In this document: piece by piece, positions 10,072 to 48,865 of the stretch | How positions within the stretch are numbered: the first letter of the stretch is position 1 | How the letters are laid out: the number at the start of each line of letters is the position of its first letter | Origin: Stegostoma tigrinum | Lineage: Eukaryota | Assembly: GCF_030684315.1 (NCBI RefSeq) | Contig: NC_081361.1 | Span: forward strand, 74,819,614-74,883,613 | DNA length: 64,000 nt | Direction: 5' to 3' | Made by a program: the position numbers and the translations under genes | The notes under the pieces: generated by a model | What the model saw: only the letters and a program-made list of their open reading frames with translations | Database searches by the model: none | What the model was told of the DNA's origin: nothing

Positions 10072-11590
10072 GTGAAAGCGCTGGATAAGTCGGGTGTCGG
10101 AACCCCTTTACATTGGTTATGCTGGGATGACCCCGAAAATGAAGTACAGTACAGACGTCTGTTGGCATGCCTAAACAAAAAATTGGGAAATGAGAATTCG
10201 CCATTAGGGGGAACTTGGGATACAGATCTATGTACTAAAGCAGAAGAGGCACTGGAAAGGGTTAATGCCATTCTGGAGAAAGAGAGCTGAAGAGCTGACT
10301 GAAAAATCAAAACTGGCCAGTTGGGTGGATAATGCACATAGGAAAGGGATCAGTGCCTGTGATAATGAGGGGAAACCTAAAACTTGGGAAGTTTTAAAAT
10401 TGCAGTGTGAGGATCATGAGATGAAAGAAAGGGAAAGAGTTAAACAAGAAAGGCAGATGCGAGAACAACGAGACAAAGAAGGGGGATGAGAGCGGCAGGC
10501 CGCGTTGATAGGAAACAAAAAAGTTGGAGGTACCTCCTGACATATCTGGCATGCTGATGTTGCTCCAAATTAATGATAGAGATGAACAAGATGAGGAGGC
10601 CTTGGGAAGGCACCCCTTTGCCCCATCGGGACCACTACCCCTCGACAACCCTACCCGTCCTTGGCCAACCTACATCTGCAGGCACCCCAACGCTGCCATC
10701 AGTCCCAGCAATCGCCCGTAGCCCTGTCACCGCCACCGTACACTGACCAAACCAAACCTCCTGCTATAGAATCTCCAAGCCCTTCAGTAATCAGCCCACA
10801 TGAATCCCCTGACAAACCCGCAGCTTGTACAGACCCTATCTCCTGTCGTACTAAATCTAAAACTAATCAGACCATTAGTGGACAAAAGGAGGGACGGCAG
10901 AATTCTTTTAAAACCCATGAGAAGCCTGGGAAAACATAAGTCCCGTGTGCAGTTCAGTAGACCCTCTAGCACCTGTTTAGTGTTTCCTAGTGATTCTACA
11001 AGTAGCGAAGGGTATGACAGTCCCGATTCACAGGCAGAGGATCGTGAATCTGAGGACAGAGCTTGGAAGAGACCCTTGGATAACCGTCCCCTAAAGAAGG
11101 ACCCCCGTAAGAAAAATCACCGGCAATTTCCTAATCACATGGTCCCTCACCCAAAGCCAACACAAGTGGGTCAAAATACAATCAGAGATAATAGGAACTG
11201 CAGATGCTGGAGAATCCAAGATAATAAAATGTGAGGCTGGATGAACACAGCAGGCCAAGCAGCATCTCAGGAGCACAAAAGGTGACGTTTCGGGCCTAGA
11301 CCCTTCATCAGAGAGGGGGACCATTTATTCCAGAACCCTCACCGCAACCCCTCTCTGATGAAGGGTCTAGGCCCGAAACATCAGCTTTTGTGCTCCTGAG
11401 ATGCTGCTTGGCCTGCTGTGTTCATCCAGCCTCACATTTTATTATCTTAGGTCAAAATACAATGCAGGTCTATACCCCTTGGAAGCCACAAGATAAGTGT
11501 TTAATTATGTCAAGGGCCCCTGATCGAAAGACTAACCCAGAAGATTTTATAGATTACATCCTGGGCACTATTCAAATACATCAAGCCACC
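10072..11590 (+). pseudogene. gag: ERV gag remnant (MA, Pro-rich region with PPPY late domain, CA N-terminus)
   Basis: TPL...PLGGTWD (MA-like), PPPY at 10730-10741, QVYTPWKPQD...NPEDFIDYILGTIQIHQAT (CA-like); interrupted at 11183-11449 and truncated at ~11590. Confidence 0.8.
11183..11449. mobile_element. Palindromic Neptune-PLE terminus mini-element inserted in gag
   Basis: Two inverted copies of the PLE terminus; perfect 14-bp TSD ggtcaaaatacaat (11169-11182, 11450-11463). Confidence 0.9.
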
Positions 11591-11619
11591 CCCCCCAAGA
11601 CCTCATTAGCCTGTGCTGC

Positions 11620-11908
11620 GTCTTTGCTGCGCTCTCCAGCCCTCAGGGTCAGTTCCAGGAACTTGACCTCCCTCAACCTTATCTGTGCCTTCTTAGGGTT
11701 TATCTGAATCAACCCGCTCTTGCACAGGAGTTGTAACAACTCACTCAGTAGGGGGCCATGTTCCTCACTATTGCCTGTGAACAACAGGATGTCGTCCACG
11801 TACTGTACAAGCCTGTGTGGCTCACTGAAATCTTTTAAACAGTCTGCCATACACTGGTGGAAAATGCTGGGGCTATTATGGAAACCCTGTGGCAGACAAC
11901 TCCATGTG
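11620..11908 (-). pseudogene. pol: Retroviral reverse transcriptase fragment, downstream part, antisense to the ERV
   Basis: TWSCLPQGFHNSPSIFHQ...LVQYVDDILL...INPKKAQI..EVKFL. Confidence 0.9.
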
Positions 11909-14081
11909 CCAGACGCCAACTCTCCGACACCACCACCTACCACCCCCTCGATCATGACCCCACCCCCGAGCACCAAACCATCATCTCCAACACCATTCAT
12001 GACCTCATCACCTCAGGGGACCTCCCACCCACAGCCTCCAACCTCATTGTTCCCCAACCCCCGCACGGCCCGTTTCTATCTCCTTCCCAAAATCCACAAA
12101 CCTGCCTGCCCTGGTCGACCAATCGTCTCAGCCTGCTCCTGCCCCACCGAACTCATCTCCACCTATCTGGGCTCCATTTTCTCCCCTTTGGTCCAGGAAC
12201 TCCCCACCTACATCCGTGACACCACCCACGCCCTCCACCTCCTCCAGGACTTCCAATTCCCTGGCCCCCTACACCTCATCTTCACCATGGACGTCCAGTC
12301 CCTATACACCTGCATTCCGCATGCAGATGGCCTCAAGGCCCTCTGCTTCTTCCTGTCCCGCAGGCCCGACCAGTTCCCCTCCACCGACACCCTCATCCGC
12401 CTAGCCGAACTCGTCCTCACCCTCAACAACTTCTCTTTTGACTCCTCCCACTTCCTACAGACTAAGCGGGTGGCCATGGGCACCCGCATGGGCCCCAGCT
12501 ATGCCTGCCTCTTTGTAGGTTACGTAGAACAGTCCCTCTTCCGCACCTACACAGGCCCCAAACCCCACCTCTTCCTCTGGTACATTGATGACTGTATCGG
12601 CGCCGCCTCTTGCTCCCCAGAGGAGCTCGAACAGTTCATCCACTTCACCAACACCTTCCACCCCAACCTTCAGTTCACCTGGGCCATCTCCAGCACATCC
12701 CTCACCTTCATGGACCTCTCAGTCTCCATCTCAGGCAACTAGCTTGTAACTGATGTCCATTTCAAGCTCACCGAATCCCACAGCTACCTAGAATACACCT
12801 CCTCCCACCTGCCCTCCTGCAAAAATTCCATCCCCATTCCCAATTCCTCCGCCTCCACCGCATCTGCTCCCACGATGAGGCATTCCACTCCCGCACATCC
12901 CAGATGTCCAAGTTCTTCAAGGACTGCAACTTTCCCCCCACAGTGGTCGAGAACGCCCTTGACTGCATCTCCCGCAACACGTCCCTCACAGCCCGCCCCC
13001 GCCTCAACCGCCCAAAGAGGATCCCCCTCGTTCTCACACACCACCCCACCAACCTCCGGATACAACGCATCATCCGCCGACACTTCCGCCATCTACAATC
13101 CGACCCCACCACCCAAGACATTTTTCCATCCCCACCCCTGTCTGCTTTCCGGAGAGACCACTCTCTCCGTGACTCCCTTGTTCGCTCCACACTGCCCTCC
13201 AACCCCACCACACCCGGCACCTTCCCCTGCAACTGCAGGAAATGCTACACTTGCCCCCACACCTCCCCCCTCACCCTTATCCCAGGCCCCAAGATGACAT
13301 TCCACATTAAGCAGAGGTTCACCTGCACATATGCCAATGTGGTATATTGCATCCACTGTACCCGGTGTGGCTTCCTCTACATTGGGGAAACCAAGCAGAG
13401 GCTTGGAGACCGCTTTGCAGAACACCTCCGCTCAGTTCGCAACAAACTACTGCACCTCCCAGTCGCAAACCATTTCCACTCCCCCTCCCATTCTTTAGAC
13501 GACATGTCCATCATGGGCCTCCTGCAGTGCCACAATGATGCCACCCGAAGGTTGCAGGAACAGCAACTCATATTCCGCCTGGGAACCCTGCAGCCTAATG
13601 GTATCAATGTGGACTTCACCAGTTTCAAAATCTCCCCTTCCCCAACTGCATCCCTAAACCAGCCCAGTACGTCCCCTCCCCCCACTGCACCACACAACCA
13701 GCCCAGCCCTTCCCCTCCACCCACTGCATCCCAAAACCAGTCCAACCTGTCTCCGCCTCCCTAATCTGTTCTTCCTCTCACCCATCCCTTCCTTCCACCC
13801 CAAGCCGCACCCCCATCTACCTACTAACCTCATCCCACCTCCTTGACCTGTCCGTCTTTCCTGGACTGACCTATCCCCTCCCTACCTCCCCACCTATACT
13901 CTCCTCTCCACCTATCTTCTTTTCTCCCCATCTTCGGTCCGCCTCCCCCTCTCTCCCTATTTATTCCAGAATCCTCTCCCCATCCCCCTCTCTGATGAAG
14001 GGTCTAGGCCCGAAACGTCAGCTTTTGTGCTCCTGAGATGCTGCTTGGCCTGCTGTGTTCATTCAGCCTCACATTTTGTTG
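11909..14081 (+). mobile_element. 5'-truncated Penelope-like retroelement, Neptune type (RT + GIY-YIG), disrupted ORF
   Basis: FYLLPKIHK..PGRPIVS, MDVQSLYTCIPH, AMGTRMGPSYA, YIDD, Cys-rich linker CNCRKCYTC, NVVYCIHC..CGFLYIGETKQRLGDRFAEH; frameshifts and a stop at 12740; 8-bp TSD tccatgtg (11901-11908, 14082-14089). Confidence 0.95.
13990..14021 (+). ncRNA. Minimal type I hammerhead ribozyme motif (family A) in PLE terminus
   Basis: CU-CUGAUGA-A-GGGU(CUAG)GCCC-GAAAC-GUC-AG: intact core, stem II, palindromic ACGU stem III; activity untested. Confidence 0.8.
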
Positions 14082-14180
14082 TCCATGTGTACTGTTGTCT
14101 TTTAAAAGTAAATGCGAATTTGTACTGGTCCTGCTGAACCGGGATAGACCAGAAACCATTCGAGATATCCAGCACCGTGA
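14082..14180 (-). pseudogene. pol: Retroviral reverse transcriptase fragment, upstream part (motif A)
   Basis: Manual minus-strand translation FTVLDISNGFWSIPVQQDQYKFAFTFKRQQYTW; joins in frame to 11908 once the PLE and one TSD copy are removed. Confidence 0.9.
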
Positions 14181-14575
14181 AATTCCCACCCTCCCTGCTT
14201 TAAGGCAGGAGAGCGCCTTTCCATCAATGGCACGTGCCATTGTTTTGAAATTCACAACCACTTATCCAAGTAATTGATATCTCTTGAAACTGCTGGCTGA
14301 GGTTTCTCCCACAGCTGTGGCTCCGCTGGGTCCTAGGGCCCATCATCCATTCATTCATTCCCGTTTTGAGGAAGGGTTGCTGGACCTGAAACATTAACTC
14401 TTTTGTTTTAAGAATTTCTGATTTTTGTGTGTGGTAAATTTGGTTAATTTTTTAGCATGTATGATTTGGTCAATTTACACTATAATTCTTGACTGGTAGT
14501 TGACTGGTGGTGATGTACACACACATGGTAATTTTTTAAACCAGCTAGAGTTTTCTTCCCCCTCCTCCCCTCCTG

Positions 14576-14606
<31 letters not shown>
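14576..14606. repeat. (CT)n microsatellite
   Basis: Direct observation. Confidence 0.95.
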
Positions 14607-14607
<1 letters not shown>

Positions 14608-15450
14608 AGTTCAGGACACCATGGCAACGTTAGTGCCCATACTGCCTCCCTGCTTCAGTTTGGCAAATGGGATATTATGATACTGTGCAAATGAGACATG
14701 ACACAGAGCAGAGATTCCTCCTGTGTACTAACCCTGTTTCCCTTCCTCCTAACTGATAGCAATCATCATGTGGAGTGGGTATTGAAGCTGTCCTACCCCG
14801 TGTGTGGATCTGCCTCACTACCACTAGCATCATAGCTGCCATGGGTCAGTCTACGCTCCTTGGTGCTCCCCTCAAGTCCACAAGGTGAGGGAGAGAATGC
14901 TCCTATTCTGAACCCAATCCCCTGCCCCATCCCAGTGTTCACTGTTTACTACTTGTAAATGGACAGTCATCCTACTCTTGTCTGCTGCTTCTGCATACAC
15001 CAGGGCTACAATGAAGCCACGTGATTAAAGCCAGCCAATCCTGAACCCCCAATATGTGCTGTAGCATTTCTACTGTGTTTGTCTGATTTGTCAGCTGTTA
15101 ATTTGATTGCTTTCCTTTGTACTTTACAGCTCTGTTACGGCAGTAATTGTGTTGCAGGCCTTCACTGACAACACCGCCCCGTCCCCGCCCTGCTATTCCT
15201 CAATAGTGAACATAGGACTTAGAGCAGGAGTAGGCTGTTCAGTCTTGCAAATGTGCTCTGCCATTCACTAAGATCATGGCTGATCTCATTGTGGTTTCAA
15301 CCCCACATTCCTGTTTCTTCCTCTTGTGTATGTGCTGCTATTCTTCAGATATCAAGGACATAACTGTCGCAGTCTACTACATCACTTACACACACACAAT
15401 GTCATACTGAAATGACAGGTTTATAGTAGGCCCTTTAAACTTGAATTAAA

Positions 15451-17315
15451 ATGACTGGTTGCCTACTGCTCCACTCGCCTGGACACTGTAGCTCAGGGAT
15501 TACCCCCTTGTTCCCAGATTCTCCCCGCGATTTATTCCTTATCTCTTCCTGCTCCACTATTAACCCAGCCACATTTCTGAGCAAACCCCCAGACGAGCTC
15601 TTAGAACCCCCACATGACTGCCTGCTAAGGAACCAATTTCTAACCTCTAGCCCAGACCTTACTGATGCCCCACTCCCTTCTCCGGACCTTATCCTGTTTG
15701 TTGATGACAGTTCCTCCATATCCCCCTCTCTGGATATGCGATTGTTGATGCCGTCTCTACATTAGAATCGACGGCATCTGAGCCCCCGGTATCTGCTCAG
15801 AAGGCAGAACTTGTTGCCCTGACCCGGGCCTGCATTCTAGCCACAGGGAGGTCAGCAAATATTTATACCGACTCTCGGCATGCCTTTGGAGTCTCCCACG
15901 ACTTCTGGTCTCAGCGGGAATTTTTAACGTCCTCAGGTACACCCATCCAGAATTCCCTGTCTGTTAAAAACCTTCTCCAGGCAATCCTCCTCCCTAAACA
16001 ATTGGCTATCATCAAATGCGCTGCCCATGCCTCCGATGATTCTATCATTACTCGGGGCAATGCTCGGGCTGATCTGGCTGCTAAACTGGCTGCTGCAGAC
16101 CAAATTTTTATTATACCCTCTATGAACAAGCAGGCGGTAAATCGCATGCCTTCAGACAAGACGGGCATGCCAGATATGGTCACTGTTCGGCACTTACAGG
16201 GGGATGCCCCTGCTTCTGAAAAGGATATTTGGAAGGCGCATGGATGTTTGCATTCTGCGTCCTCAGGCCTTTGGGTTACCCCAGTCGGCCAAGTGTATAT
16301 ACCTGATGCTTTGTTACCTCTGCTTGTTGACTGTCTGCATTCTGACACCTACCTTGGCAAGGAGGGAATGAGTGGTATTATGCTCCATACCTGGTGGCAC
16401 CCCAGACTGACTGAGGCAGCCCAGTCTTGTATAGCATCTTGTCTCACATGCCAGCAAAACAATGTGTGTCAGGGGGTGAGATGCTCACCAGGAAAAACCC
16501 CCTTGCCAGGTGGACTGTTTGAATGCATTCAGCTAGATTTTATTGAATTACTGCATGTAAACTGTTATAAATATTGTCTTGTCATTGTAGACATATTCAG
16601 TAGGTGGATAGAGGCTTTCCCAACAACAAAGCCTCAACAGTAGTAAAACTATCATTAACTGAAATAATACCGAGGTTTGGAGTGCCGCGACAAATTAGTT
16701 CGGACAACTGCCCTCACTTTGTAGGGAAGATTACGTTACACATCCAACAGCAATTCCACTGAGCCTACCACCCCCAGCTGGCAGGGATAGTGGAAAGAGC
16801 TAATGGAACACTTAAAACTAAACTAACCAAGTTGACATTAGAGAGCGGCATTAATTGGCTAAAGGTTTTGCCACTAGCCTTGTATCGCATGTGAATAACA
16901 CCCCATTTTACTACTGGGCTCTCAGCAGTAGAAATAGTCTATGGCTGACCCAGCAGAACAACATGGGATGCCAATACCAGCCCGCCCACCCACGCAAATT
17001 GACCTAAATGTGATGGGAGAAGAAATGCAAAGGTACTTCCGACAACTAACATCATCTCTAAAGTTTCTCCATTCGCAGGTGAAGCGCGCCTTTGGACCAC
17101 CTCCGCTGACACCGGACCAAGACCTCAAGATTCAGGATTGGTCTTCGTGGCCGCAGATTGGAGATTTTGTACATGCCCGGGACTGGGATTGTCCCAAGCT
17201 TGGACCAAGGTGGAAAGGACCGTATCAAGTGCTTCTTCAGACTCCAACAGCTCTTAAAGCTAAAGGACAGAATCGCTGGATCCATCTAAGTGACTGCAAA
17301 CGATTTCCTCATTAG
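15451..17315 (+). pseudogene. pol: ERV pol remnant: tether, RNase H and integrase
   Basis: [106 protein letters not shown]. Confidence 0.93.
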
Positions 17316-18780
17316 CTTGCAATTAACCATTGCACTGAGTATTATTCTGCCCATGCATGGCCAGCAGGACAATCTGTTTTATAAAATACACATCCAGCTG
17401 CACAGGAATCAGACAGCATGTTACCCACTAGCACGGTCTGGAGAAGCGTTATTTGTGGCAACACCTGCCTGGAACCCTAGTCAGCTTTATGAAGTAGAGT
17501 ATTCCGGTAAACCTTGCCGAGGGGAGAGGGGAACTTGGACGGGGGGTGTGCAGGGTAGGTGTGTGGTTAATGGCCCCTCTGATTGTGGGGACACTAGACT
17601 TCAGGCATGCCATAAATGTACAGCAGACAGCTATGATAACTACTAGAACAACTAACCCATGACGCAAGTATGAGCCTCAAGAACTGCCCATAAGCCATCC
17701 TAACAAGTCCTTGCCAGTTCAGGGTCCCTCTCTGTACAAATCCCAACAGCTAGTTTTGCTTTAATCGAACTGGGACTTGTTGTGTGCATGCTTTAGTCAC
17801 TAATCACCCCCATAACGTTTCCTGGCCCCATCGGTGTGTAACGAGAAATTGCACCACTAGAGGAGGAATGTTGAACTGCTCCTGGTTAGAATCCAAGCCA
17901 TAATTGTGACCCTGGGCATACAGTGGACTTGTGAGGATGGCAATAGCACCCATGTAAAAACGGACTATGGGTCATTTCCATTTAACTCCGCAAACTTCCA
18001 TCCATATAAGGGTCAGTCCTCCTGGCATAGCTATCAAGAAATATGTGAGTCTGTTACCTGCTACCGGGCTAAAAAGGGATTCGTTTTCCTCCTTAACGGG
18101 ACCTTCACAACTGCCTCTCCAACTCTGATGGTGCTGTTTGCTGTTGGGACCATTGGGCCTCTCACAGTCCCTTGTCCCCAACAAGCACAAACTCAATGGC
18201 GAATTGTCACATGCTTCCTGAGCCGTGAGTTTTGCGCTGCATGGCAGAACCCAATTGCCTTGGGCTCTTCCTTGGGATACGACTTCCTGGGAACTGTTAG
18301 CTTGGGAGGCTCCCCAGGGGTGGTGGCCGCAAAAAAAATCCAAGTTACCTTATATGTGGACTCACCACCCTAGGAAACAGCACAATGATGGCATTGGAGG
18401 CAGTCAACCAAGAATTAACTGAACTTCGGCTCTATGCTCAGCAAAGCCGGTAGGCAGTAGACTATCAACTGGCTCAGCATTGAGGATTATGCACTATTAT
18501 AGGGGACAACCAAGTCACCAACGAGTCCTATAACATTACCCAGGCTATTCAAGCCATACAGGGACAGTTGGAGCGATACAGAATGGGACCCTGAACTGGG
18601 GAGGGCTTGTTAGGATGGCTTATGGGTGGTTCTTGGGGCTCATACTTGCTTCATGGGTTAGTTGTTCTAGTAGTTATCATAGCTGTCTGCTGTACATTTA
18701 TGGCATGCCTGAACCCTTGCTGCAGATTTGTGTTTGACAGGCTAGCAGCTCCCTTCTCGGCCCGATATAGGTTATCATGA
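17290..18780 (+). pseudogene. env: ERV env remnant (SU and TM)
   Basis: Hydrophobic signal-like start, Cys-rich SU, Gly-rich fusion peptide, heptad ALEAVNQELTELRLYA, ISD-like QQSR*AVDYQLAQH*GLCTIIG, TM helix GLVVLVVIIAVCCTFMACL. Confidence 0.85.
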
Positions 18781-19529: not shown

Positions 19530-21000
19530 GGTAGAAGGCCAGCTCTGCAAAAGACCAGCTTCTGTTGGAGCAAATGAATAGGACTGCATCTATTTTGGGC
19601 TTAAAAAATAAATGTTTTTTTCTGTTGACATGAAAGCAGCACAAAATCGCTAACTGAAAATTCTGCTCATTCCTGTCAGCGCCATCTAACCCTTTATTTT
19701 GAATAATGAACTTCAGTCAGAATCTCCTCTGTCCTATAGGGAGAGCCCAATTTTTCAAGATTCCTTTGAATTTATTTCCTAATAGACTGGCCCTAAACAG
19801 CCTTGCCAAAATGCACGCAGCACATGTAACTGCATTTTAACAGAACAACAATTATGTTTTCAGCTTTGTATTCCATACTTCTTCCCACTGATACCAGTAT
19901 CCTATTAACAAAGCATTGGGCAATTTTGTGAGGCATGATAAAGGTTTCAAAAGATGTTATCTTCCTCTAATAAACACTATACTTACTGCCTTCCTTTTAA
20001 ATTTTATTCACAATCAATATTTCACATTCACCAACATGTTGTTCTTAATATCCGTTCAAATATACACCCAAACTGCTTAAGAAAAACATCAAATCTATTT
20101 GGAATCTGCCTAAAGCTCATCAAAAGCCATTCGAACAATAACTATTAAAATGGAAAGGTTTAGGTTTCTGAGACTGAAAGCTTGAATATTATTTCCTGTC
20201 TTGTGTTCAGGAAAATGAGACATGCTAAATAACCAAGCCACTAACATAATCCATAAAGAAACTGACGTGAAAACAATCTGGATAGATGATATTTATCACT
20301 CTGAGTAAACTTAAGGAGCAGAGGGGGTTAGAGTTTGGATTTAGAAAATAACAACAAGGTGGATGCAGGTGAACAGAGAGCCAGGGAATCTTTAAACTAA
20401 ATGCATGAACGCTGTTTGAACTGTATGTATTTAAGATATGCAAATAATTTAGAAACTTGTAAGATGGACAGTAGGTTTGGAAGGTAAATCTAAATGATTA
20501 ATTATCAAGCTGATCGCTTGATGGTTTGTGTGGGCAATTCTGATTATTCTAGTGGCTTTAGTATTCTATCCACAGTGTTTAACCAAGCAAAAGGGAAACA
20601 TGCTTATAGTTTAGAAATGGTTAGGATTGCCAAAATTTATGTATGAGAGGTCGATAAGGATTTTTTTCTAAGGTGGGAAGCCATTCAAGAAATTGGTGCA
20701 TAACCTTTACAAAACCTTAAGAAACTTATTGAATATTGTTAGGAATAGCTCTATTTCGCTCTTGTGACGAAAGCTTCCTGGGTTGACAATCACAGAATAT
20801 TGTATGCTGTTATCTTTGCAAACAACCTGTCTCTAACACAAGCTGTGAAACAAGATTTTCCCAAACACAGTAAGGGGAAAGGGACAGTTAGGTTTTATGA
20901 TCTGTATGTAAACCAACTGACTGAGTAGAAGTTAACCAGGATGCCCTCAGAAGCAGTAAGCCATGTGATGACTTTATGGTCTTCCAACAAAATTAGGCAT

Positions 21001-21190
21001 GATGTGGAGGTGCCAGTGTTGGACTAGGGTGGACAAGGTCAGAAGTCACACGACACCAGGTGATTGTCACATAACACCACGTTATAGTCCAACAGGTTTA
21101 TTTGAAATGACAAGCTTTTGAAGCGTAGCCCCTTTGTCAGGTGATTTCAATTAAATCTGTTGGACTATAACGTGGTGTTATGTGACTTCT
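21001..21190. mobile_element. PLE-derived inverted-repeat mini-element (family D) with decayed hammerhead motif
   Basis: Arms gtcacataacaccacgttatagtccaacag / ctgttggactataacgtggtgttatgtgac; minus-strand ctgacaaaggggctacgcttcaaaagctt at 21111-21144. Confidence 0.65.
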
Positions 21191-22659: not shown

Positions 22660-22851
22660 AATCGTCGGAACTTCCCTTTAGAAGCAAAGCGCGGTAAATG
22701 GTAAAAGTTGACAAACTTTGGAAGCACGGCGAAGCCTTGGAGCTGGTGCCGAGATTCGCGATTTGGGCCGTTCTGGACTGAGTCCCGATCCGTAACAGTA
22801 ACCGACACATGCGCATTAGGGAGAATGCGTGTCAGGTGAACGGAGTGACGA
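22660..22851 (+). promoter_or_regulatory. Probable PARS2 promoter / non-coding first exon
   Basis: Local CpG enrichment ~2.2 kb upstream of the PARS2 acceptor; cggaa and atgcgca motifs; candidate donors cag|gtgaac and (after the insertion) aa|gtgagt. Confidence 0.55.
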
Positions 22852-23272
22852 GAGATAATGGGAACTGCAGATGCTGGAGATTCCAAGATAATAAAATGTG
22901 AGGCTGGATGAACACAGCAGGCCAAGCAGCATCTCAGGAGCACAAAAGCTGATGTTTCGGGCCTAGACCCTTCATCAGAGAGGGGGATGGGGAGAGGGAA
23001 CTGGAATAAATAGGGAGAGACGGACCGAAGATGGAGAGTAAAGAAGATAGGTGGAGAGAGTATAGGTGGGGAGGTAGGGAGGGGATAGGTCAGTCCAGGG
23101 AAGACGGACAGGTCAAGGAGGTGGGATGAGGTTAGTAGGTAGCTGGGGGTGCGGCTTGGGGTGGGAGGAAGGGATGGGTGAGAGGAAGAACCGGTTAGGG
23201 AGGCAGAGACAGGTTGGACTGGTTTTGGGATGCAGTGGGTGGGGGGGAAGAGCTGGGCTGGTTGTGTGGTGC
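22852..23272 (-). mobile_element. Neptune PLE 3' fragment
   Basis: Reverse complement of the 3' region at ~13690-14078 plus full terminus; 12-bp TSD acggagtgacga (22840-22851, 23273-23284). Confidence 0.92.
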
Positions 23273-23284
23273 ACGGAGTGACGA

Positions 23285-23580: not shown

Positions 23581-25022
23581 ACTACTGTATAAACTTATAA
23601 AGAAAGCTCTTGCATCCCCTTTCAAATTAGGAGACCAAAACTAGACACAGTACTCCAGATGTAATCTCATCAACACTCTATACAGCTGTAAAGAAAACCC
23701 CCTACTTTTATATATTATTCTTATTACAATAAGCACCAATGCTTTATTTGTTTTCTGAATTACTTTCTGAAACTGTATACTGGCTTTCTGTGACTCCTTC
23801 GGTACCATTGAGTTCTGCAATCTATCTCCATTTAACTAAAACACCACTTTTCTATTCTGCCTGCCAGTGTGGAAGTTTGCATTTCTCTGTGTTATGCTTT
23901 GAATTTTTGCCCAGTCTCTTAATGCTTTGCAGCCTATAGCTCCTTTAACAACTAGCTTTCCTAGCTATATTCTAAGCAAAATTAACTTGTGTCATCCCAT
24001 CATCAAAGTCATTGATGTAGATTGTAAACAGTTGAGGGCCAAGCAATTATTCCTGTGGTACTCCACTAACCACAGTCTGCCAGTCTGAAAAAAACTAATT
24101 TATCCTACTTTGTTTCCTGTCTAACAACCATTCCTTTTTCACATTACAATGCTGTGCATGCATCACAACCACTTACTTTGTATCACAGCTTGTGATGTGA
24201 CCTTTCACAAAAGACTCTTAGAAATCTCAGCATGCCATGTTTACAAGTTCCCTTTTATCTGCTGTGCTTGTTACTTCTTCAATTTACTCTAGCACAATAG
24301 TTGAACATGATTTATTTTTCACAGAACCATGTTGATTCTGCCAAATTCTGTTATGATTTTCAAATATCCTTCTATAATCATAGCACTGGATTCCAGCAAG
24401 TGAAGTAGTTGCATCATTGGGTTATTGTCCTATATATTCCTGTATTTTGTTTCTTTCCTCCTTATTGTTGCATTTGCTGTTTTCCAGTTTACTGGTATTT
24501 TGCTAGAACCTAAGAAGTTTGGGAGATAATTACATTTTACTGTTAGCTCTGCAGGAATTTCTAAGAATCCAGGTCGGAGGTGATAAAATGGCGACCCCAA
24601 CACTCAGTCCAGCTTAGAATGTGGCGATCAATCCTGGTGGATGTAGCTAGACTTAGTTAACTGTGTGTGAAGCCATACTCTGAGTTATAGTAACCAAAAT
24701 ATGCTGGACCTCCAGGAAAGTAATCCAGTTGTGTGATCTTTTCCTGCTTTTGGTGACACCATGAGGAATGCTTAATTGTTATTAGATGCTTAATTGTGAC
24801 CTTAGATAGATGAATATGCTTTGCATCTCCCATCTTAATAAACATTGAAAATGAAAATACATGACTAGGACGCATCTAGTTTACTTGCTATAATGCATTC
24901 AGTCCACAGTGCTTTCCTTTCTTAATTGTTGTATGGAATTTAAAAATGTACTTTCTTGAGGAGGATGTGAACTTACACACCTTGCTTTCCTTTCTAGAAC
25001 TGATTATTTCTCGGATGCACCA

Positions 25023-29050: not shown

Positions 29051-29347
29051 GCGAGTTTTGAGAAGATTTGTAGCTCAGGTTGAGGTTCTGGATGTGAGTT
29101 TGCTCGCTGAGCTGGAAGGTTAGTTTTCAGACGTTTCGTCACCATTCTAGGTAACATCATCAGTGAGCCTCCGACGAAGCGCTGGTGTTATGTCCCGCTT
29201 TCTAACCCAAGGAAACCTAACCAGATAAATAGAAAGCGGGACATAACACCAGCGCTTCGTCGGAGGCTCACTGATGATGTTACCTAGAATGGTGACGAAA
29301 CATCTGAAAACTAACCTTCCAGCTCAGCGAGCAAACTCACATCCAGA
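29051..29347. mobile_element. Palindromic Penelope/Poseidon-type PLE mini-element (family B)
   Basis: 118-bp arms 29087-29204 and 29230-29347 with one mismatch; same terminus as the 38911-40065 element; TSD gccc(a/t)tgaaaaga (29038-29050, 29348-29360). Confidence 0.9.
29127..29166 (-). ncRNA. Minimal type I hammerhead ribozyme motif (family B)
   Basis: UCA-CUGAUGA-U-GUUACC(UAGAAU)GGUGAC-GAAAC-GUC-UGA; mirror copy on + at 29268-29307 has GUC>AUC. Confidence 0.8.
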
Positions 29348-33075: not shown

Positions 33076-33783
33076 GTACCGAAATTCAACCAAAACACAT
33101 TTAAATTGGTAGATTTTCATTTTGCAAACAAGTAGCTGGCTTCCTGCTGATTTCTTGTTCTGAGAATTCAGTGGAATGAAATTTTCTGGCTTTGACTGGG
33201 TTTTATTTATTTTTTCCATGGAATGTGTGTGTTATCAGCAAGGCTAGCATCTTTTGCCTGAATGGCTTGCGAGGGCATTTTGGAGGGAAGAGTCAACCAC
33301 TCGGTAGTGGATATGGAATCACATATTGGTCTAACTGGATAAGGTTGGCCGATTAAGAGCAATTGTGTCCTGTTATAAAGTCATTGATCTGAACCAGAAG
33401 CTGTTAGTGCTGCCTGACCACCTGAATTTTCCCAGCTTCTTCTGTTCGTAATTTCAGTCTTCTGGCACTTTGCTTTGGTTTGTAAGGATAGTAGATTTCC
33501 TTTCCCAAATGACATTAGTGAATCAGATGCATTTTTGCAACAATTGATGATTGTTGTCATGTTAGTTGCTGCAGGGGGATTTGAAATCATATCCCAGAAC
33601 ATTAGTTTGGGCATTTTGATTACTGGTCCAGTGACATTACCACTATGTTGCTATCTCCACATCTACATGTTATCATTTATAAAAGTGTTAGATTATAATA
33701 CAGTCAGTACTCTACAATGCATTGTTTTAGCCTGATTCCATCTTTATTTTCAGAAGAATACAAAAAAGATAGTAATCCTGTGA

Positions 33784-33940
33784 TAATAAAATGTGAGGCT
33801 GGATGAACACTGCAGGCCCAGCAGCATCTCAGGAGCACAGGAGCTTTTGTGCTCCTGAGATGCTGCTTGGCCTGCTGTGTTCATCCAGCCTCACATTTTA
33901 TTATCTTGGATTCTCCAGCATCTGCAGTTCCCATTATCAC
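33784..33940. mobile_element. Palindromic family A mini-element lacking the hammerhead core
   Basis: Inverted termini; TSD tagtaatcctgtga (33770-33783, 33941-33954). Confidence 0.88.
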
Positions 33941-34223
33941 TAGTAATCCTGTGAAATGGTTTCTAAATTACCAATTGAATATATGTTTATTCACTGATGT
34001 CATCAGTATTGGAGCTACTGAAACTGTTCATGGGAAAATCACTGGGGAGAAACTTATTGCCACTTTCCGAAAATAATGCTGCAATTTGTGGTTTAATGCC
34101 TTTTGAAACGAATTGACCATCCTTAGAAGATTAAATGATAAATCACATTTTTATATCAGGCTGGATGAATATAACTGCTTATGGGTTATGTTAAACATTT
34201 TCCTTTTAAATTATGTTTTACAG

Positions 34224-35465: not shown

Positions 35466-36643
35466 AGAGGAGATAATGGAAACTGCAGATGCTGGAGAAT
35501 CCGAGATAACAAAGTGTGGAGCTGGATGAACACAGCAGGCCAAGCAGCATTTTAGGAGCACAAAAGCTGACGTTTCGGGCCTAGACCCTTCATCAGAAAA
35601 GGGCAATGGGGAGAGGATTCTGAAATAAATAGGGACAGAAGGGGAGGCGGACCGAAGATGGATAGAGGAGAGTATGGGTGGGGAGGTAGGGAGGGGGTAG
35701 GTCAGTCTGGGGAGGACGGACAGGTCAAAGGGGCAGGATGAGATTAGGTAGGAAATGGAGGTGCGGCTTGAGGTGGGAGGAGGGTTAGGTGAGAGGAAGA
35801 ACAGATTATGCAGGCGGGGATGAGCTGGGCTGGGTCACCTGCACATCCGCCAATGTGGTATACTGCATCCACTATACCCGATGTGGCTTCCTCTACATTG
35901 GGGAAACCAAGTGGAGGCTTGGTGACCGCTTTGCAGAACACCTTTGCTCGGTTCACAATAAACAACTGCACTTCCCAGTCGCGAACCATTTCAACTCCCC
36001 CTCCCATTTCTTAGACGACATGTCCGTCCTGGGCCTCCTGCAGTGCCACAATGATGCCACCCGAAGGTTGCAGGAACAGCAATTCATATTCCGCTTGGGA
36101 ACCCTGCAGCCCAATGGTATCAATGTGGACTTCACAAGCTTCAAAATCGCCCCTCCCCCCACTGCATCCCAAAACCAGCCCAGCTCATCCCCGCCTCCTA
36201 ACCTGTTCTTCCTCTCACCTATCCCCTCCTCCCACTTCAAGCCGCACCTCCATTTCCTACCTACTAACCTCATCCCGCCTCCTTGACCTGTCCGTCCTCC
36301 CCGAACTGATCTATTCCCTCCCTACCTCCTCACCCATACTTTCCTCTCCACCTATCTTCTCCTCTATCCATCTTCATTCCGCCTCCACCTCTCTCCCTAT
36401 TTATTTCAGAATCCTCTCCCCATTCCCCTTTAATGATGAAGGGTCTAGGCCCGAAACGTCAGCTTTCCTGCTCGGCCTGCTGCGTTCATCCAGCCTCAGG
36501 ATTAGGCCCGGAACGTCACCTTTTTTTGCTTGGCCTGCTGTGTTCATCCAGCTCCACACTTTGTTATCAAGGAATTGGAGTGAGTTGAACACATTGTTCT
36601 GTCATTCTCTCATTCCACTCATTTAATCTGCATTGTTATCTTC
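35466..36643. mobile_element. Neptune PLE fragment: inverted 3' end joined to a sense GIY-YIG fragment and terminus
   Basis: 35466-35834 antisense, ~35835-36500 sense (NVVYCIH..FLYIGETK); intact minus-strand hammerhead 35567-35597; short flanking repeat ggtggtg (35459, 36644). Confidence 0.9.
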
Positions 36644-37064
36644 GGTGGTGTACAGGTAGGGATTAGGGTGGGGGTGAGTGGTATGGAGTTCTAAATAAGT
36701 GGATGGGTATCTGGGAGGGAGTTGAGGGCTGTCTGCTTGTTTCCATCTGGTGGGGTGGGGTCGGGTAGTGGGGAGGATTCATGCAAATTGGTTTAGCGGT
36801 CACGGGGGGAGTTTGGTTGTCTGAGGATTGCTGTCGGGGCGGGGGGCTGTTTTGTGGTCTGTAGAGGTGTTGCGATTGAGAGGGGTGGAGGGAGTCCTAT
36901 GGCTGTCAGGTGTCCAGGGTCACGGAGGGGGAGGTTGGGGTCTATTTGTTGGGTATCTGGATTGAGGGGAGACGTTGATATTCACAAATGGTTTGGTATT
37001 GGGAGTTTGGGGGAAGTGGTGATGGGAATCTGAGATAAGTTGAACAGGGAGGGATAGTTTTATG

Positions 37065-37880
37065 TGCTGAAAACAAAACTGCTGAAGATCACAGCAGGTC
37101 AGGCAGTGTCCATGAAGAGAGAACAGAGAGAACAAGCTAATGTTTTGAGTCTAGATGACTATTTATCAGATCTGATGTGAAGTGTGGAGGGAGCAGCATT
37201 TATGCTATTGGAGGGGGAGGTTGGAGTGCTGTGGTAGAAAGGGTGCTAATAGTGCACATTTAGTGATTGGAGTGTGAGAATGGCAGAACGATGATGTGTC
37301 TAACTGTTGATGTGTCTAACTGCCAGACTGGAAAGAACAGACAGTGCTATTGGATTGGAGGCAGGGGAGAGAGAACATGGTGACAGAAAATGTAACAAAT
37401 AAAGCTAAAAGAAAGGGAAGGAATTGGAGTGATCAGAGATAATTGGAACTGCAGATGCTGGAGAATCCGAGATCCGAGAATCCAGTGTTTTAGGAGCACA
37501 AAAGCTGACCTTTCTAGGCCCGAAACGTCAGCTTTTTTTGCTTGGCCTGCTGTGTTCATCCAGCTCCACACTTTGTTATCAAGGAATTGGAGTGGGTTGA
37601 ACACATTGTTCTGTCATTCTCACATTCCACTCATTTAATCTGCACTATGAACACCTTTTCTCCCCCAGCACTCAGCAGGACTCTCTCCCCCCCCCCCCCC
37701 CCCCCCCACCACCCACCATTGCATCAATACTGTCTCCTTCACACTTCACGTCAGCCCTGATGAGTCATCTAGACTCAAAGCATTAGCTTGCTCTGTCTCC
37801 ATGGATGCTGCCTTAACTGCTGTGATTTCCAGCATTTTTTGTTTGCAGTACAGATTCCAGCATCTGCAAGAATTTGCTCA
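37065..37880. mobile_element. Older inverted-arm PLE-derived element (family C) with nested family A mini-element at ~37433-37580
   Basis: Arms gctaatgttttgagtctagatgact / agtcatctagactcaaagcattagc; decayed hammerhead at 37757; nested insert with TSD aaggaattggagtg (37419, 37581). Confidence 0.75.
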
Positions 37881-38527
37881 TACGTAGAGTTAGTTCTATA
37901 GCTGGAGCAAATCTGAACTTCTCTAACCTTTCCTGGTTAAGGAAAGTAAGGCAGTAGCCTCCATGGTTCGTGACTCTAACTCAGACTTAGGGAATTTTCG
38001 GGAGGGTTCCAGATGCTGGGTTATTACCTGACCTTTCAACTTCACAGGCAACTCTCACAATATAAACTGCATCGGGACTTCATACAGTCCTGCCATACAA
38101 CTCTAGCTTAAGATTCAGCAACATCTACTTTTCTGTTGGGAGATACATGAGGAACTCTGCCAGCGGGAAACCACAGCAGTGAACTCAGAATCTGAGATAC
38201 TATGCTGGACTTCCAAACATTTGTAAATAAAAAATGAAAGAACTGTGGATGCTGTAAATCAGGAACAAAAACAGGAGTTGCTGGAAAAGCTCAGCAGGAC
38301 TGGCAGTATCTGTGGAGAGAAATCAGTTAGTGTTTTGGGCTCAGTGATCCTTCCTCAGAACTCAGTGTTCCAAATACTTGGTGCCACACACACAGCCAAT
38401 TATGAGTTTAACAGTGTCGTGCTTCCCTTTTGATTTTCTTTCAGTCTTAAACCAAAGGCAGAGACAGTGCAATGCTGCATGGAACCAATGTTTATTCCTA
38501 ACCATAGGTGAGTTAGGTAATGATGAA

Positions 38528-38740
38528 GAGATAATAGGAACTGCAGGTGCTGGAGAACCCATGATGACAAGATGTAGAGCTGAATGAACACAGCTAGCCA
38601 AGCAGCATCTTAGGAGCAGGAAAGCTGATGTTTCGGGCTTAGGCCCTTCATCATGGAGGGTCGAGGCCCGAAACGTCAGCTTCCTGCTCCTAAGATGCTG
38701 CTTGGCTAGCTGTGTTCATCCAGCTGTACATCTTGTTATC
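38528..38740. mobile_element. Palindromic family A-related mini-element
   Basis: Inverted termini meeting at the hammerhead cores; perfect 14-bp TSD taggtaatgatgaa (38514-38527, 38741-38754). Confidence 0.9.
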
Positions 38741-38910
38741 TAGGTAATGATGAACCTCTCTTTCCTACTGTCATCCATTTTTCCTTCTTTTTATTGAGGA
38801 AAAAAAATAATTTCTTGAAAAGATTGATCATTTAATAGACTCCATGTTTAATTATTAACATTAATGCTGCATTATGAAATGGAGGTGGGTGTTGTGAAAC
38901 TGGTATCTCA

Positions 38911-40065
38911 CTGAGCTGGAAGGTTAGTTTTCAGACGTTTCGTCATCATTCTAGGTAACATCATCAGTGAGCCTCCGACGAAGCGCTGGTGTTATGTCCC
39001 GCTTTCTATTTATCTGGTTAGGTTTCTTTGGGTTGGTGATGTCATTTCCTGTTCTTTTTCTCAGGGGATGGTAGATTGATTTGGAGCCAATGTGTTTGTT
39101 GATGGAGTTCCGGTTGGAGTGCCATGCTTCTAGGAATTCTCGTGCATGTCTCTGTTTGGCTTGTCCTAGGATGGATGTGTTGTCCCAATCAAAGTGGTGT
39201 CCTTCCTCATCTGTATGTAAGGATACGAGTGATAGTGGATCATGTCGTTTTGTGGCTAGTTGATGTTCATGTATCCTGGTGGCTAGCTTTCTGCCTGTTT
39301 GTCCAATGTAGTGTTTGTCACAGTTCTTGCAAGGTATTTTGTAGATGACGTTCGTTTTGCTTGTCTGTATAGGGTCTTTTAAGTTCATTAGCTGCTGTTT
39401 TAGTGTGTTGGTGGGTTTGTGGGCTACCCTGATGCCAAGAGGTCCGAGTAGTCTGGCAGTCATTTCGGAAATGTCTTTGATGTAGGGGAGAGTGGTTATG
39501 GTTTCTGAGCCCGTTTTGTCTGTTTATTTGGGTTTATTGCTGAGGAATCGGCGGACTGTGTTCATAGGGTACCCATTCTTTTTGAATATGCTGTATAGGT
39601 GATTTTCCTCTGCTCTGCGTAGTTCCTCTGTGCTGCAGTGTGTGGTGGCTCGTTGGAATAATGTTCTAATGCAGCTTCGTTTGTGGGTGTTGGGATGGTT
39701 GCTCCTGTAGTTCAGTATTTGGTCCCTATGTGTTGTCTATAGGAAAAGAGCACATATGGACCAAATACTGAGACACGCATGAGAATTCCTAGAAGCATGG
39801 CATTCCAACCGGAACTCCATCAACAAACACATTGATTTGGAGCCAATCTACCATCCCCTGAGAAAAAGAACAGGAAATGACATCACCAACCCAAGGAAAC
39901 CTAAACAGATAAATAGAAAGCAGGACATAACACCAGCGCTTCGTCGGAGGCTCACTGATGATGTTACCTAGAATGGTGATGAAACGTCTGAAAACTAACC
40001 TTCCAGCTCAGCGAGCAAACTCACAATCAGAACCTCAACCTGAGCTACAAATCTTCTCAAAACTC
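38911..40065 (-). mobile_element. Penelope/Poseidon-type PLE fragment (GIY-YIG) with inverted copy of its 3' end
   Basis: NVIYKIPCKNCDKHYIGQTGRKLATRIHEH..REFLEAWHS; inverted copy ~39770-40065; hammerhead motifs at ~38931-38970 (-) and 39952-39991 (+); TSD actgg(t/c)atctca. Confidence 0.92.
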
Positions 40066-40159
40066 ACTGGCATCTCAGTACGGTTACTTGATCAGTAAAT
40101 AAAGCTTTGAGAAATGGATTTTCCAGTGATATTAAATGACTGAAGTGTTGTGCTGACAG

Positions 40160-40284: not shown

Positions 40285-40424
40285 GTATGTTTAGTGACTG
40301 CTGGTTAAGTACTTGACTCTAGGAGATAAAGTCTGTGATGATTGCATTGCATGAGTGCTGGATACAGGAGGTTTAGTCAATTAAGTATATGTACAATGCA
40401 GAAATTGTCAAAGTGGTTCCTCAA

Positions 40425-43447: not shown

Positions 43448-43470
43448 GTAAATATCAAAATAAAGACATC

Positions 43471-43683
43471 AGAGATAATGGGAACTGCAGATGCTGGAGA
43501 ATTCCAAGATAATAAAATGTGAGGCTGGATGAACACAGCAGGCCAAGCAGCATCTCAGGAGCACAAAAGCTAATAAAATGTGAGGCTGGATGAACACAGC
43601 AGGCCAAGCAGCATCTCAGGAGCACAAATGTGCTCCTGAGATGCTGCTTGGCCTGCTGTGTTCATCCAGCCTCACATTTTATT
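43471..43683. mobile_element. Family A mini-element (tandem plus inverted termini, no hammerhead core)
   Basis: Perfect 14-bp TSD aaaataaagacatc (43457-43470, 43684-43697). Confidence 0.9.
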
Positions 43684-45266
43684 AAAATAAAGACATCCTT
43701 CACTTTTGGCAATTAATGTTAATGTCTGTTTTAAAGTAGGACAAAGCCAAAAAAGTTTTAAATGCTGGATATCTGAAGCAAACACAGGTAATGCTGGAGA
43801 AACTCAGCAGGTCTGGCAATATCTGTGGAGAGAGAAACAGAGTCCGGTATGACACTGAACGGGGTTCTCTAGCAGTCTCAGTGTTTGTTCTAGGTATGAC
43901 ATCTAGTGTTCTAAAAATAGCCTCTCCAAAGATCTGAGCAAGCTTAGAACTTATAGGCAAATGTTCATGTGATGTGGACTGATATTTTAATTATGTTATG
44001 TTAATGACAGCTTCAAACTAGATGTTTCAATGAATGAACTGCAGGCATGTCAAAATTATTTCCCACTTTAGTTAATGCATGCACAATAGTGGCTTTGTCC
44101 CTGCTTTCTGGAACTGTCTGAATACACTGGCAATTTGCAGTCTTCCTTTTTTGATAGCTTTGTGGTGAAATAGGGCTGAGAATAGCTTGGTAGCAGACAT
44201 TTCTCAAAGGTTGTGAATGTAGGTCACAAGATGAAATGAGACTGTCCTGACTGTCCCCTAGTCTCCTTGTTCTGAAATGCCTCACTGGAGTAGTTTGTTG
44301 GAAATCAGCCACATTATCATCTGAGTCATCACAGAAGTTAAAATGTTATCACATTTCATGATATCTCCAGTTTACCTTTTCGATAGACTCAAATTAACAT
44401 GGACCAGGTTTCTGTAATTATAAGAGCTTTTGAGTGCAAACAAATAGATTCTAACTACAGGTAAACAACTATTAACTGTTGACATCACTCTATCAGTTAA
44501 AGCTGTATAACTCCCTTGTAAAACTCACCACACACATACACAGCCGAAAAAATCTGGTGTTACGGCTGGAGGGAAGGTAAAGTACCAGTGTGGGGGAAAC
44601 ACTTCAATAGTCCTCAGGATTCGACTGTTTGTTTAAGTTCTCTGATTCTCTGATCATCTCCTTCATGTTTTTTCATTTCTTCATGGGAGTATAAGATGAA
44701 CTAGTTCACAAATGACTTCTTGGTTGAAAGCAACATTTTACAGCACTCGATGGGAGAGAAGACCTGGTTTTCTTTAGCTTCAGGTATTTTATAGGGAAGG
44801 GAGAGACTATCTCCCCTTGCAAAAGTCTGAGGGCCTCCCCTTGAAGCTTTCACATCCACAAGCTGTTCAGCTACCCAGCAACTAATCACAGAGTTGGTGC
44901 CAGGCTGATGAGCTTGGCGACCATGACTGGTCACATTTCCACTAACCAATCAGCTACTTGCTACTGGCTGAATCTCTCTCAGTACATTGTACTGGTGTCC
45001 ATGCTGTCTTCTTTAACTCCTTCCCATGCTGCTTGCAAAGCAAAAATGTAAACATAACTGACAATGAGTTTCAGTCACTTGATAATTAAAAATACAGCAA
45101 TTCCTTTCTCGGTTCTCATTTTATATTAACAGTCCTTTTCCCAGTTCAATCAAGAATAAAGTAAAACAAAAAGTTACATCGCTATAGTACTGATTCATGA
45201 GTGTCATTTTTGTTTACTGCCAAGCAAGGTTTCTAGAGATTAACTTTGACTCCATTCTCTTTTCAG

Positions 45267-45351
45267 GTTTATTGATCATTTATCTGTGATGTTTGGTGAG
45301 AACCTCCCCCCTTGGGATACAGAAAAGAAATATAAGCCAAATAATTTAGAG
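45267..45351 (+). CDS. TTC4: TTC4 exon 8
   Basis: tttcag|G...GAG|gtacg; FIDHLSVMFGENLPPWDTEKKYKPNNLE. Confidence 0.93.
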
Positions 45352-46837: not shown

Positions 46838-46920
46838 TTGTATTTTGAAGGTGAGCAAGGAGAGGATCTGTTCCAGGTAGATCCCATGTGCACTCTGCGA
46901 CAGATTCTGAGTCATGACAG
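46838..46920 (+). CDS. TTC4: TTC4 exon 9
   Basis: ccatag|TTG...AG|gtgag; LYFEGEQGEDLFQVDPMCTLRQILSHD. Confidence 0.9.
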
Positions 46921-48667
46921 GTGAGCAGTGTTAATTGTGTGGTTGCTGATTTCATTTCCTGCTGTCTCTTTAACTTAGGTAGGTGGAGAACTACCATACT
47001 TTTATACAAAATGGCTTGTACAATCTTGAGGCTATTTTTTTTTTATGAATGTTACAGTTGTCTCAGATTCTGCTTTGCTGTGGCAACATTCACTTTGTGA
47101 TGTTTGAGCTTCCAACATTTTTATCGTAACATGAACTAACCTGAAACCTCATTTATTGTTACTGCATTCTATTTGCATAAGTTGGAGGATTTGCAAGTTG
47201 CTACTCAACCTATTTGGACAAACTATGACTGTATCTTCCTGAGTTTTGTTAACCTGGAGTAGGACATAAATCCAGGACTTCTGGTTCGGAAACAGCAATG
47301 TCATCATTGTGCCACAGGAACACCTTTGAATATTCGATAAAAGCTATCAATATTACAAAATCATTGCAGGCTGGGAAGGATAGCCAGTTACAGCATTGGT
47401 CTTTAAAATCAATTTGTCTAAGAGAATTGTCTAAGAGATTCAAACAGCTTTTGGTCTGAGCATTCAAATGAAGTAAATTTGGAGAGTATCTCCTTGTATT
47501 TCTTTCTTCTCCAACCCCTGCCTGGCCTACACATCAATTCATTTAAGATTGAAAACTTAGCACAGTGCAAAGTAGACTTGTACGCCAACATATAGGCAAT
47601 ACATGTGGGCCAACCAGCGACACCCACATCCCACAAGTGAATAAAAACTCATGGAAGTCAGATCTGTTACTTGGCCACACCAGCTTGATGCTTGCCCCTC
47701 TAGACAACATCAGTCTCGCTTCTACACAATTTGCCAGCCACGTACGCAGGAAGTGCATTGCTTGTACTTCCAAAAAACGGCCATGTCTCAAAGTCAAAGG
47801 GGAATAGTCCTCAGACAAGTCGAAGGAAACAGGTTTCTGGTGCATTAAGTCAACAGCAGCCTCTGATATCAATCGAGGGACTTGGGCACCGAGTGCATTG
47901 GGTGGTCATGGCCAGGGGATCTGGTCCGGGGAGTCACAGGAAGACAGTAGGGACCTGGCCAGATATCAGTCAAGGGTCTGGTCACTCATTGTTCAGTGCT
48001 GTCCATCTAAGTCACTCAAGTGGGTGGGTCACTGTCAGTCCTGAGAGGTCTGTACATTAAAAGCCATTTGGAGTTGAACAGGTATTCTTGGGGCCAGTGT
48101 TACAAAATTGAAGCTAATGAACTTAGTTTGACTGGTGATTGGGGGCAGCATAACAGATGCAGAGGGCAGAACATTAGAGAAGAGGAGGTAATGTAGGAGC
48201 TGGGGGTGGCGTGCACTCCTGTTTCCGTTGTGGTTACATATACCTGGAGCTGAGGATGTAAAATGGAGAGATGAAAATTTAGATAGACTGATTTGGTTGG
48301 GTGGGAACTTAGGGATGTTCAAAACCCATAGGATTGACAGGCAGAGCCACCAAGAGACGAATGTAGACATTTGAGGATTCACCAAGGCTGCGAGGCTCGA
48401 CTGGAGTCTCACAGTTTAGAATAGTATCATGGTCGGCCAAAGGGCCTGTTCCCGTGCTGTGTTGTTCTATGTTCATTGCGTGAAGAACACCTTCCACGAG
48501 ACTGTAAATAAGAAGTGTGGCAAGTGGAGCTAAAAATGGCTGTCAACACACTAGGTCTGGGTGAGTTAAGTGTTTCATTTCACAATCTACTAAAGATAAT
48601 ACACCTCTGCAAGCACTGTGTGAACCTTCGGCATTAACCTATGTGCAGTCCAAATCCTTCTCCAAGC

Positions 48668-48865
48668 GTAGAGATTACATGGTGTAGAGCTAGATGAACA
48701 CAGCGGGCCAAGCAGCATCAGAGGAGCAGGAAGACTGATGTTTCGGGCCTAGACCCTCCAGGCCCGAAACATCAGTCTTCCTACTCCTCTGATGCTGCTT
48801 GGCCCATTGTGTTCATCCAGCTCTACACCTTGTTATCTCAGATTCTCCAGCATCTGCAGTTCCTA
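48668..48865. mobile_element. Palindromic family A-related mini-element
   Basis: Inverted termini; flanking repeat ccttctccaagc (48656-48667, 48866-48877). Confidence 0.85.

Follow-up and report, generated by a model that had tools for sequence, protein, structure and literature searches.

Fourteen clear hairpin-shaped inserts, built of inverted 3' ends of Penelope-like elements (PLEs), are present in one 64-kb stretch of assembly sequence from Stegostoma tigrinum (contig NC_081361.1 of GCF_030684315.1, positions 74,819,614 to 74,883,613; hereafter the window). The inserts are real, to judge from the target-site duplications (TSDs) around them and from mutations specific to single arms. They are best explained as dead, heavily 5'-truncated PLE insertions, unable to move as a unit. 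From comparison of the copies, it appears well supported that the hairpins formed de novo at insertion and were not copied from a master, as an earlier note on this DNA had proposed.

The hairpins, from about five families, were detected by self-comparison of the window and with a repeat finder. Ten were on the list of the earlier note and four are added here (21066, 37063, 53425 and 54536), along with three non-inverted family A copies absent from that list (22852-23270, 11909-14083 and 59540-59634). TSDs were called by searching for direct repeats flanking each insert, against a null in which 3000 pairs of positions were drawn at random, each with a slack of 8 nt; an exact repeat of at least 12 bp occurred in 1/3000 of these pairs.

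Architecture of the hairpins

The eight small inserts listed before measure 149-297 bp and are, as had been stated, head-to-head pairs of PLE 3' ends, one complete and one truncated. The arms are 92-100% complementary in the six inserts named as young or middle-aged; depending on age, arms differ by 0 to about 30%, CpG-type changes included. The element 3' ends face outward in all 14 hairpins, and the full 3' end is carried by one arm only. The tail is found on exactly one end in 14/14 (left in eight, right in six), a result that an independent choice of ends would give with a probability of 0.5^14 = 6e-5. The tail-less arm stops 31-37 nt short of the 3' end in 11 of the 12 family A and A-like ends.

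Three hairpins, the plain copy 22852 and the long copy 11909-14083 form one young subfamily of family A, with 0-4 differences in 56-136 nt. Hairpin 11183..11449 consists of a tailed arm (11183-11320, minus strand) and a tail-less arm (11321-11448, plus), which meet at a blunt centre; its TSD is exact (11169-11182 and 11450-11463, 14 bp). At 33784..33940, the tail-less arm is on the left (minus) and the tailed arm on the right (plus), again within an exact 14-bp TSD (33770-33783 and 33941-33954). The insert at 43471..43683 had been counted among those made of two termini; three segments were found instead: a tailed piece (43471-43570, minus), a re-started tail-less piece (43571-43628, minus) and a tail-less arm (43629-43684, plus), between exact 14-bp repeats (43457-43470 and 43684-43697). 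Synthesis was re-started at the tail base also in 21066 (20999..21190), an older hairpin of a third family with a tailed piece, a re-started tail-less arm and an inverted tail-less arm, so that two families show a short tandem ahead of the inversion. The TSD of 21066 is decayed (10 bp with one mismatch by script, 14 with three by eye).

Two hairpins belong to an older subfamily of family A. In 38528..38740, the left arm is tailed and the right one tail-less (TSD 38514-38527 and 38741-38754, 14 bp, exact); in 48668..48865, the left arm is tail-less and the right one carries a tail about 9 nt short (TSD 48656-48667 and 48866-48877, 12 bp, exact). Old and A-like are 5343..5518, with a tail-less arm at 5343-5381 (minus), a tailed arm up to 5518 (plus) and a 14-bp TSD with one mismatch (5329-5342 and 5519-5532), and 54536..54992, whose arms measure about 215 and 240 nt, with a tail on the right only and no clear TSD. 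The old hairpin 37063..37890, of another family, has a tail on its right arm only and no clear TSD, and hosts a nested, internally deleted family A hairpin, 37433 (37432..37580), with an exact 14-bp TSD (37418-37431 and 37581-37594). Hairpin 53425 (53398..53600), old and also of another family, is tailed on the left only; no TSD was found around it.

Family B is represented by 29051..29347, in which a tailed arm (29051-29204, minus) and a tail-less arm (29204-29347, plus) overlap by 1 nt within a 13-bp TSD with one mismatch (29038-29050 and 29348-29360), and by the long insertion 38911..40065. The latter has a tail-less arm of ~850 nt (minus) with GIY-YIG sequence and a tailed arm of ~300 nt (plus). 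The long family A insert 35466 (35470..36643) joins a tailed arm (35470-35833, minus) to a sense arm with a GIY-YIG remnant (35832-36498, plus). That GIY-YIG sequence persists in these two longer versions agrees with the earlier note; as to their flanks, 38911 has a 12-bp TSD with one mismatch (38899-38910 and 40066-40077), but 35466 only a 7-bp repeat and, near its right end, a captured 130-nt piece.

In the eight small inserts, the TSDs are 12-14 bp long, six exact and two with one mismatch. Counted over all hairpins, the TSD is 14 bp in 6/14, 13 bp in 1/14 and 12 bp in 2/14, with a mode of 14 bp. The same overall layout is known from endonuclease-bearing (EN+) PLEs: an inverted 5'-truncated copy and a tail of 30-40 bp at one end (Arkhipova et al. 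2013, PMC3846280; Craig et al. 2021, PMC8557442), a length with which the fixed stop at -31 to -37 agrees. Like canonical EN+ insertions, the hairpins thus combine a head-to-head inverted, 5'-truncated copy, a one-end tail and a TSD; palindromes at the junctions, a hammerhead in the pseudo-long terminal repeat (pLTR), and a reverse transcriptase (RT) with a C-terminal GIY-YIG domain are further points in common (PMC3846280, PMC8557442). Unlike them, the products in the window are mostly stumps of 150-300 bp without an open reading frame (ORF), and their one-end tail holds without exception; the TSD mode of 14 bp compares with 8-10 bp in the Adineta vaga examples and with "variable" in Craig et al. 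(PMC8557442). The hairpin architecture is thus already published. This applies also to the fixed truncation point, known as the boundary of the tail and as the second site at which the RT starts. The addition made here is modest: the one-tail rule, the 14-bp mode and a symmetric nick context favour priming at both nicks.

The TSDs have no AT-rich bias (0.59 vs. 0.58 for the window). Palindromes are generally recognised as a class of assembly or library fold-back artefacts; such an origin of the hairpins is nevertheless hardly credible, given the clean TSDs, the fixed tail asymmetry and the divergence of the arms by age. Of 16 sequencing runs listed in a run search, 4 contain 0.96-0.97 of the words, 9 from another organism contain 0.12-0.15, and 3 are bisulfite runs included by label; they do not count as evidence on the hairpins.

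Probable formation at the target site

Miniature inverted-repeat transposable elements (MITEs) are amplified from one master in many copies, which share its internal region and have symmetric terminal inverted repeats. The inserts of the window resemble them in being small, non-coding and TSD-flanked, with inverted ends. "MITE-like", as the earlier note called them, describes only this look-alike appearance: no master or internal region is shared, and one end always lacks at least 31 nt. No two of the 14 centres in the window are alike, which bears out the claim that every internal junction differs. The three young, near-identical hairpins 11183, 33784 and 43471 have three different centres, with the tail on the left in two and on the right in one. 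For 5343, 38528, 48668 and 54536, the older hairpins of family A or of A-like type, each arm is closest to its own partner. Young, near-identical copies with different centres and older arms with their partners as nearest relatives indicate that each hairpin was built on site from one subfamily.

Under another reading, the inserts would be a non-autonomous family, MITE-like or retrozyme-like, with hairpins as masters; this would explain the size, the inverted ends and the TSDs. One re-copying of a hairpin piece, the only one seen in the window, also speaks for it: 36503-36633, the piece captured by 35466, is a 130-nt, 97% identical copy of 37515-37645 and comprises the right arm of 37433 along with the TSD of that hairpin and 50 nt of flanking sequence. 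It sits ~1 kb upstream of its source, inside the tail-less end of 35466, and is followed by 10 nt of element end. However, the centre of 37433 is omitted from the copy, the centres differ even between near-identical hairpins, the two ends of a hairpin are not alike, the same termini are seen also on PLE copies that are not inverted and that bear ORFs, and the hammerhead-like cores are predicted to be sequestered. Copying from a master is accordingly regarded as very improbable. The insertions 35466 and 37433 have subfamily variants in common; the captured piece may result from a template jump to nearby DNA, or the two may be one complex event.

Non-LTR retrozymes are tandem direct repeats of 150-300 bp, each with a hammerhead, giving circular RNA (PMC7761336). 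The hairpins are similar to them in being small, non-coding and TSD-flanked and in carrying a hammerhead motif. No tandem direct hammerhead repeats of this type were found among the 9 rows examined; the motifs are inverted, one per strand.

The hairpins probably arise when a PLE dimer nicks both target strands ~14 nt apart and primes both on element RNA. A predicted dimer of the element protein would make the two nicks about 14 bases apart; one nick would be primed at the tip of the tail and the other at its base, in the same ribonucleoprotein particle and probably on one RNA. Both cDNAs would terminate early and then be end-joined with an overlap of 0-4 nt, and gap filling would yield the TSD. 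If the second nick were not used for priming, a plain copy would result, like 22852..23270 (minus). Tailed and 5'-truncated but lacking an inverted arm, this member of the young A subfamily serves as an internal control. It too is flanked by a 14-bp TSD (22838-22851 and 23271-23284, one mismatch), which suggests that the stagger belongs to the cut and that the second priming is optional.

The in vitro work on the Poseidon element of Anolis carolinensis (Frangieh et al. 2024, PMC11167929) offers close parallels. Two RT start sites bracket the tail, as the two kinds of arm end do here, both target strands are cut and extended, a dimer is predicted, and ATT is preferred. In the window, ATT stands just outside 4/24 inferred nicks, including both of 29051, at an offset picked after the fact. 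When the TSD is taken as the stagger of a 3' overhang, T is found at +3 outside 16/24 inferred nicks, 9/12 on one strand and 7/12 on the other (p = 0.003, permutation over 8 positions x 4 bases), as a symmetric cutter would give on both strands. The 12 TSDs of this test include 22852, 3475 and 38237, which are non-hairpin or doubtful, and exclude two tail-less singles.

The earlier note had offered two routes to the hairpin. Priming at both nicks fits, but simple fold-back fails in 5/14 hairpins (11183, 29051, 35466, 37063 and 38911), in which the tail-less arm extends at least 24 nt further 5' and the tail is present only on the other arm. Since each arm here has sequence that the other lacks, neither was copied from its partner. 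Fold-back, in which a single nick starts target-primed reverse transcription and the new cDNA folds back, copies itself and halts near the tail base, would further leave the fixed stop at -31 to -37 unexplained. It suits 5343, 33784 and 38528, with a tailed arm longer than or equal to the other, and the inner pair of 43471, and a self-complementary 4-mer is present at the centre of 33784; as a general explanation, it is considered improbable.

The published proposal, and the main competitor of double priming, is self-priming on an antisense template (PMC3846280): a palindrome would form before integration, and the endonuclease would trim one tail upon resolution (PMC8557442). It accounts for arms of the same subfamily, short loops and correlated arm lengths, as well as for the 64-nt palindrome (39712-39775) at the centre of 38911. 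In this insertion, the tailed arm jumps ~570 nt and ends within ~10 nt of the inner end of the other arm; a jump between templates may have produced the palindrome, or a long and once nearly perfect palindrome may later have suffered a deletion. Against self-priming, the centre overlap, 0-4 nt overall, is 0-1 nt in 11183, 29051, 38528 and 43471, too small for a stem; the tail borders correspond to RT start sites on nicked target DNA in vitro (PMC11167929); and an extra integration step would be needed for the 14-bp TSD, which is also found on plain copies. Self-priming is thus judged unlikely, although less so than fold-back.

Double priming itself faces several difficulties. The hairpins that suit fold-back fit both readings. 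The uniform 12-14 bp TSDs claimed before hold for the eight small inserts, but 5/14 hairpins have no clean TSD of this length, and the tail-less, non-inverted singles 11909-14083 and 59540-59634 have TSDs of 8 and 11 bp, for which double priming does not account. Two tail-less ends fall off the cluster, that of 54536 at about -42 and that of 38911 (family B) at about -49. Arm lengths correlate over the 14 hairpins (rho 0.84, spans set by hand), as expected for one shared template, but significance is lost when only the 10 short hairpins are counted (rho 0.57, p 0.08), and three long ones are very lopsided. In the nick test, 4/12 TSD edges are uncertain by 1-2 nt. No strand difference in the use of the start sites was found for Poseidon (PMC11167929); the consulted portions of that paper assign neither start to a particular strand, report neither a fixed stagger nor paired start use, and do not discuss inverted products. 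Finally, the whole case comes from this one window, with its 14 hairpins and about five families.

The same two-primer logic is known outside PLEs. In the twin priming of LINE-1, reportedly described by Ostertag and Kazazian in 2001, two target-strand primers on the element RNA lead to an inversion inside the TSD. There, the arms stem from different portions of the RNA, with an internal primer whose position varies; here, in contrast, one and the same 3' end is copied into both arms, beginning at two fixed sites ~34 nt apart.

A broader claim, that two distant PLE clades share concerted double priming by one dimer with a fixed ~14 nt stagger, a symmetric base preference and two starts on one RNA, is put forward tentatively. 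If true, the tail, the inverted pLTR and the TSD, hitherto unexplained hallmarks of PLEs, would all follow from one step, of which shark genomes would contain a very large number of natural read-outs. PMC8557442 calls the origin of the inverted repeats and the tail an open question, and PMC11167929 does not settle it. No paper on a 14-bp TSD of shark PLEs or on paired start use was found in literature searches that covered mostly open-access papers, largely at the level of listings, and two pattern scans of metagenome contigs returned 0 loci. The one-tail rule, the narrow 14-bp TSD and the symmetric nick contexts provide sharp, testable predictions on PLE insertion.

Parent elements and hammerhead-like motifs

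The arms of family A match the 3' end of the long copy 11909..14083 (plus), a 5'-truncated, tail-less and non-inverted PLE with part of the RT, a GIY-YIG remnant and an upstream CX2-5CxxC linker, between 8-bp repeats (11901-11908 and 14082-14089). In this copy, Pfam detects RVT_1 (E 4e-4) and GIY-YIG (E 5.5e-4), both weak and under the curated cut-offs. Among 1975 candidates, 341 relatives at E <= 1e-20 were found, many with an RT and some with GIY-YIG; the best one, 79% identical, comes from a bamboo shark, with corals and molluscs next. The arms of family B match 38911, and 41 relatives were found among 496 candidates. Zebra shark proteins match the GIY-YIG frame of 38911 with 87-94% identity, and flatworm proteins with about 60%.

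Both families have a CxxC in the stretch from GIY to YIG; the histidines of the CCHH pattern were identified by eye only. The CX2-5CxxC linker is present in family A, 37 residues ahead of the GIY core, and absent from the 190-aa frame of family B that spans linker and endonuclease. This linker upstream of GIY-YIG is a feature of Neptune/Nematis and is lacking in Penelope/Poseidon (PMC8557442); by this character alone, family A would be placed with the former and family B with the latter. The sequence data thus support EN+ PLEs as parents. As the earlier note had it, families A and B appear to be unrelated and yet give the same architecture, to judge from their relatives, the linker and the arm matches.

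Near their 3' ends, families A and B contain a hammerhead-like core of the minimal kind: a bulged base precedes a stem II of 4-6 bp, the 15.2-16.2 pair is palindromic, and stem I has 2-3 bp. The type I hammerheads described for PLEs are minimal too, and share this bulge ahead of stem II and a short stem I (PMC4209133). An Rfam search gave 29 matches at E <= 1, all under the gathering score and none of them a hammerhead, and the 3' ends of A and B fold no better than shuffles (z 0.43 and -1.21). Cores on both strands, as claimed before, are present in 11183 (11311, minus, and 11355, plus), in 29051 (29163, minus, and 29271, plus) and in 38911, but in 35466 only one core matches the pattern. They are a by-product of the symmetry of the arms. 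A read-through transcript of 11183 or 29051 is predicted to fold into a hairpin with an energy of about -210 to -245 kcal/mol and with the sense core fully paired, which makes ribozyme activity unlikely. Functional ribozymes on both strands were rejected on this ground and because minimal hammerheads need a tandem partner (PMC4209133).

The tailed arms of 33784 (at 33842) and 43471 (at 43570) stop precisely where the hammerhead is predicted to cut. The coincidence, noticed post hoc, has p 0.009 if exact and 0.07 with 1 nt of slack, under a rough uniform null. Some templates may thus have been ribozyme-cut RNAs; this stays a weak lead, since RNA ends at the ribozyme cut site were not found for Poseidon in vitro (PMC11167929).

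Read as annotation targets, the PLE stumps are prone to be mistaken for MITEs or microRNA hairpins; 28 of the 29 Rfam matches are sub-threshold microRNA models. The stumps are also a source of long, perfect RNA hairpins in the genome.

Other copies and neighbouring features

About 20 PLE pieces are present in the 64 kb altogether. A tail-less single stub of family A is located at 59540..59634 (plus), with an 11-bp TSD (59534-59544 and 59633-59643) that overlaps the element ends. Decayed PLE ends of older families occur at 3464-3619, 38224-38367, 43745-43905, 63150-63325 and 14335-14420, two of them with TSDs of 13-14 bp with 2 mismatches each. The candidates 3475, 43762, 63214 and 14367 were left out of the hairpin count, their second arm being too short or decayed, and 38237 was not counted, being a single copy.

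A broken endogenous retrovirus occupies 10790-18750, with two PLE insertions inside. An RT fragment (11584-12012, Pfam RVT_1) lies on the minus strand and RNase H and integrase pieces (15708-17312) on the plus strand; this opposite orientation suggests an internal inversion of the provirus. In its 3' part, 17600-17736 and 18577-18713 form a 137-nt inverted repeat, 93% complementary, 840 nt apart and not PLE-related.

Two host genes were recognised with Pfam: a TPR-protein exon at 7486-7983 (plus) and an intronless class II tRNA synthetase frame at 24963-26435 (minus), presumably a prolyl-tRNA synthetase of the mitochondrial type. An inverted match of ~66 nt with 78% identity links 61972-62037 and 63060-63127, 1 kb apart.

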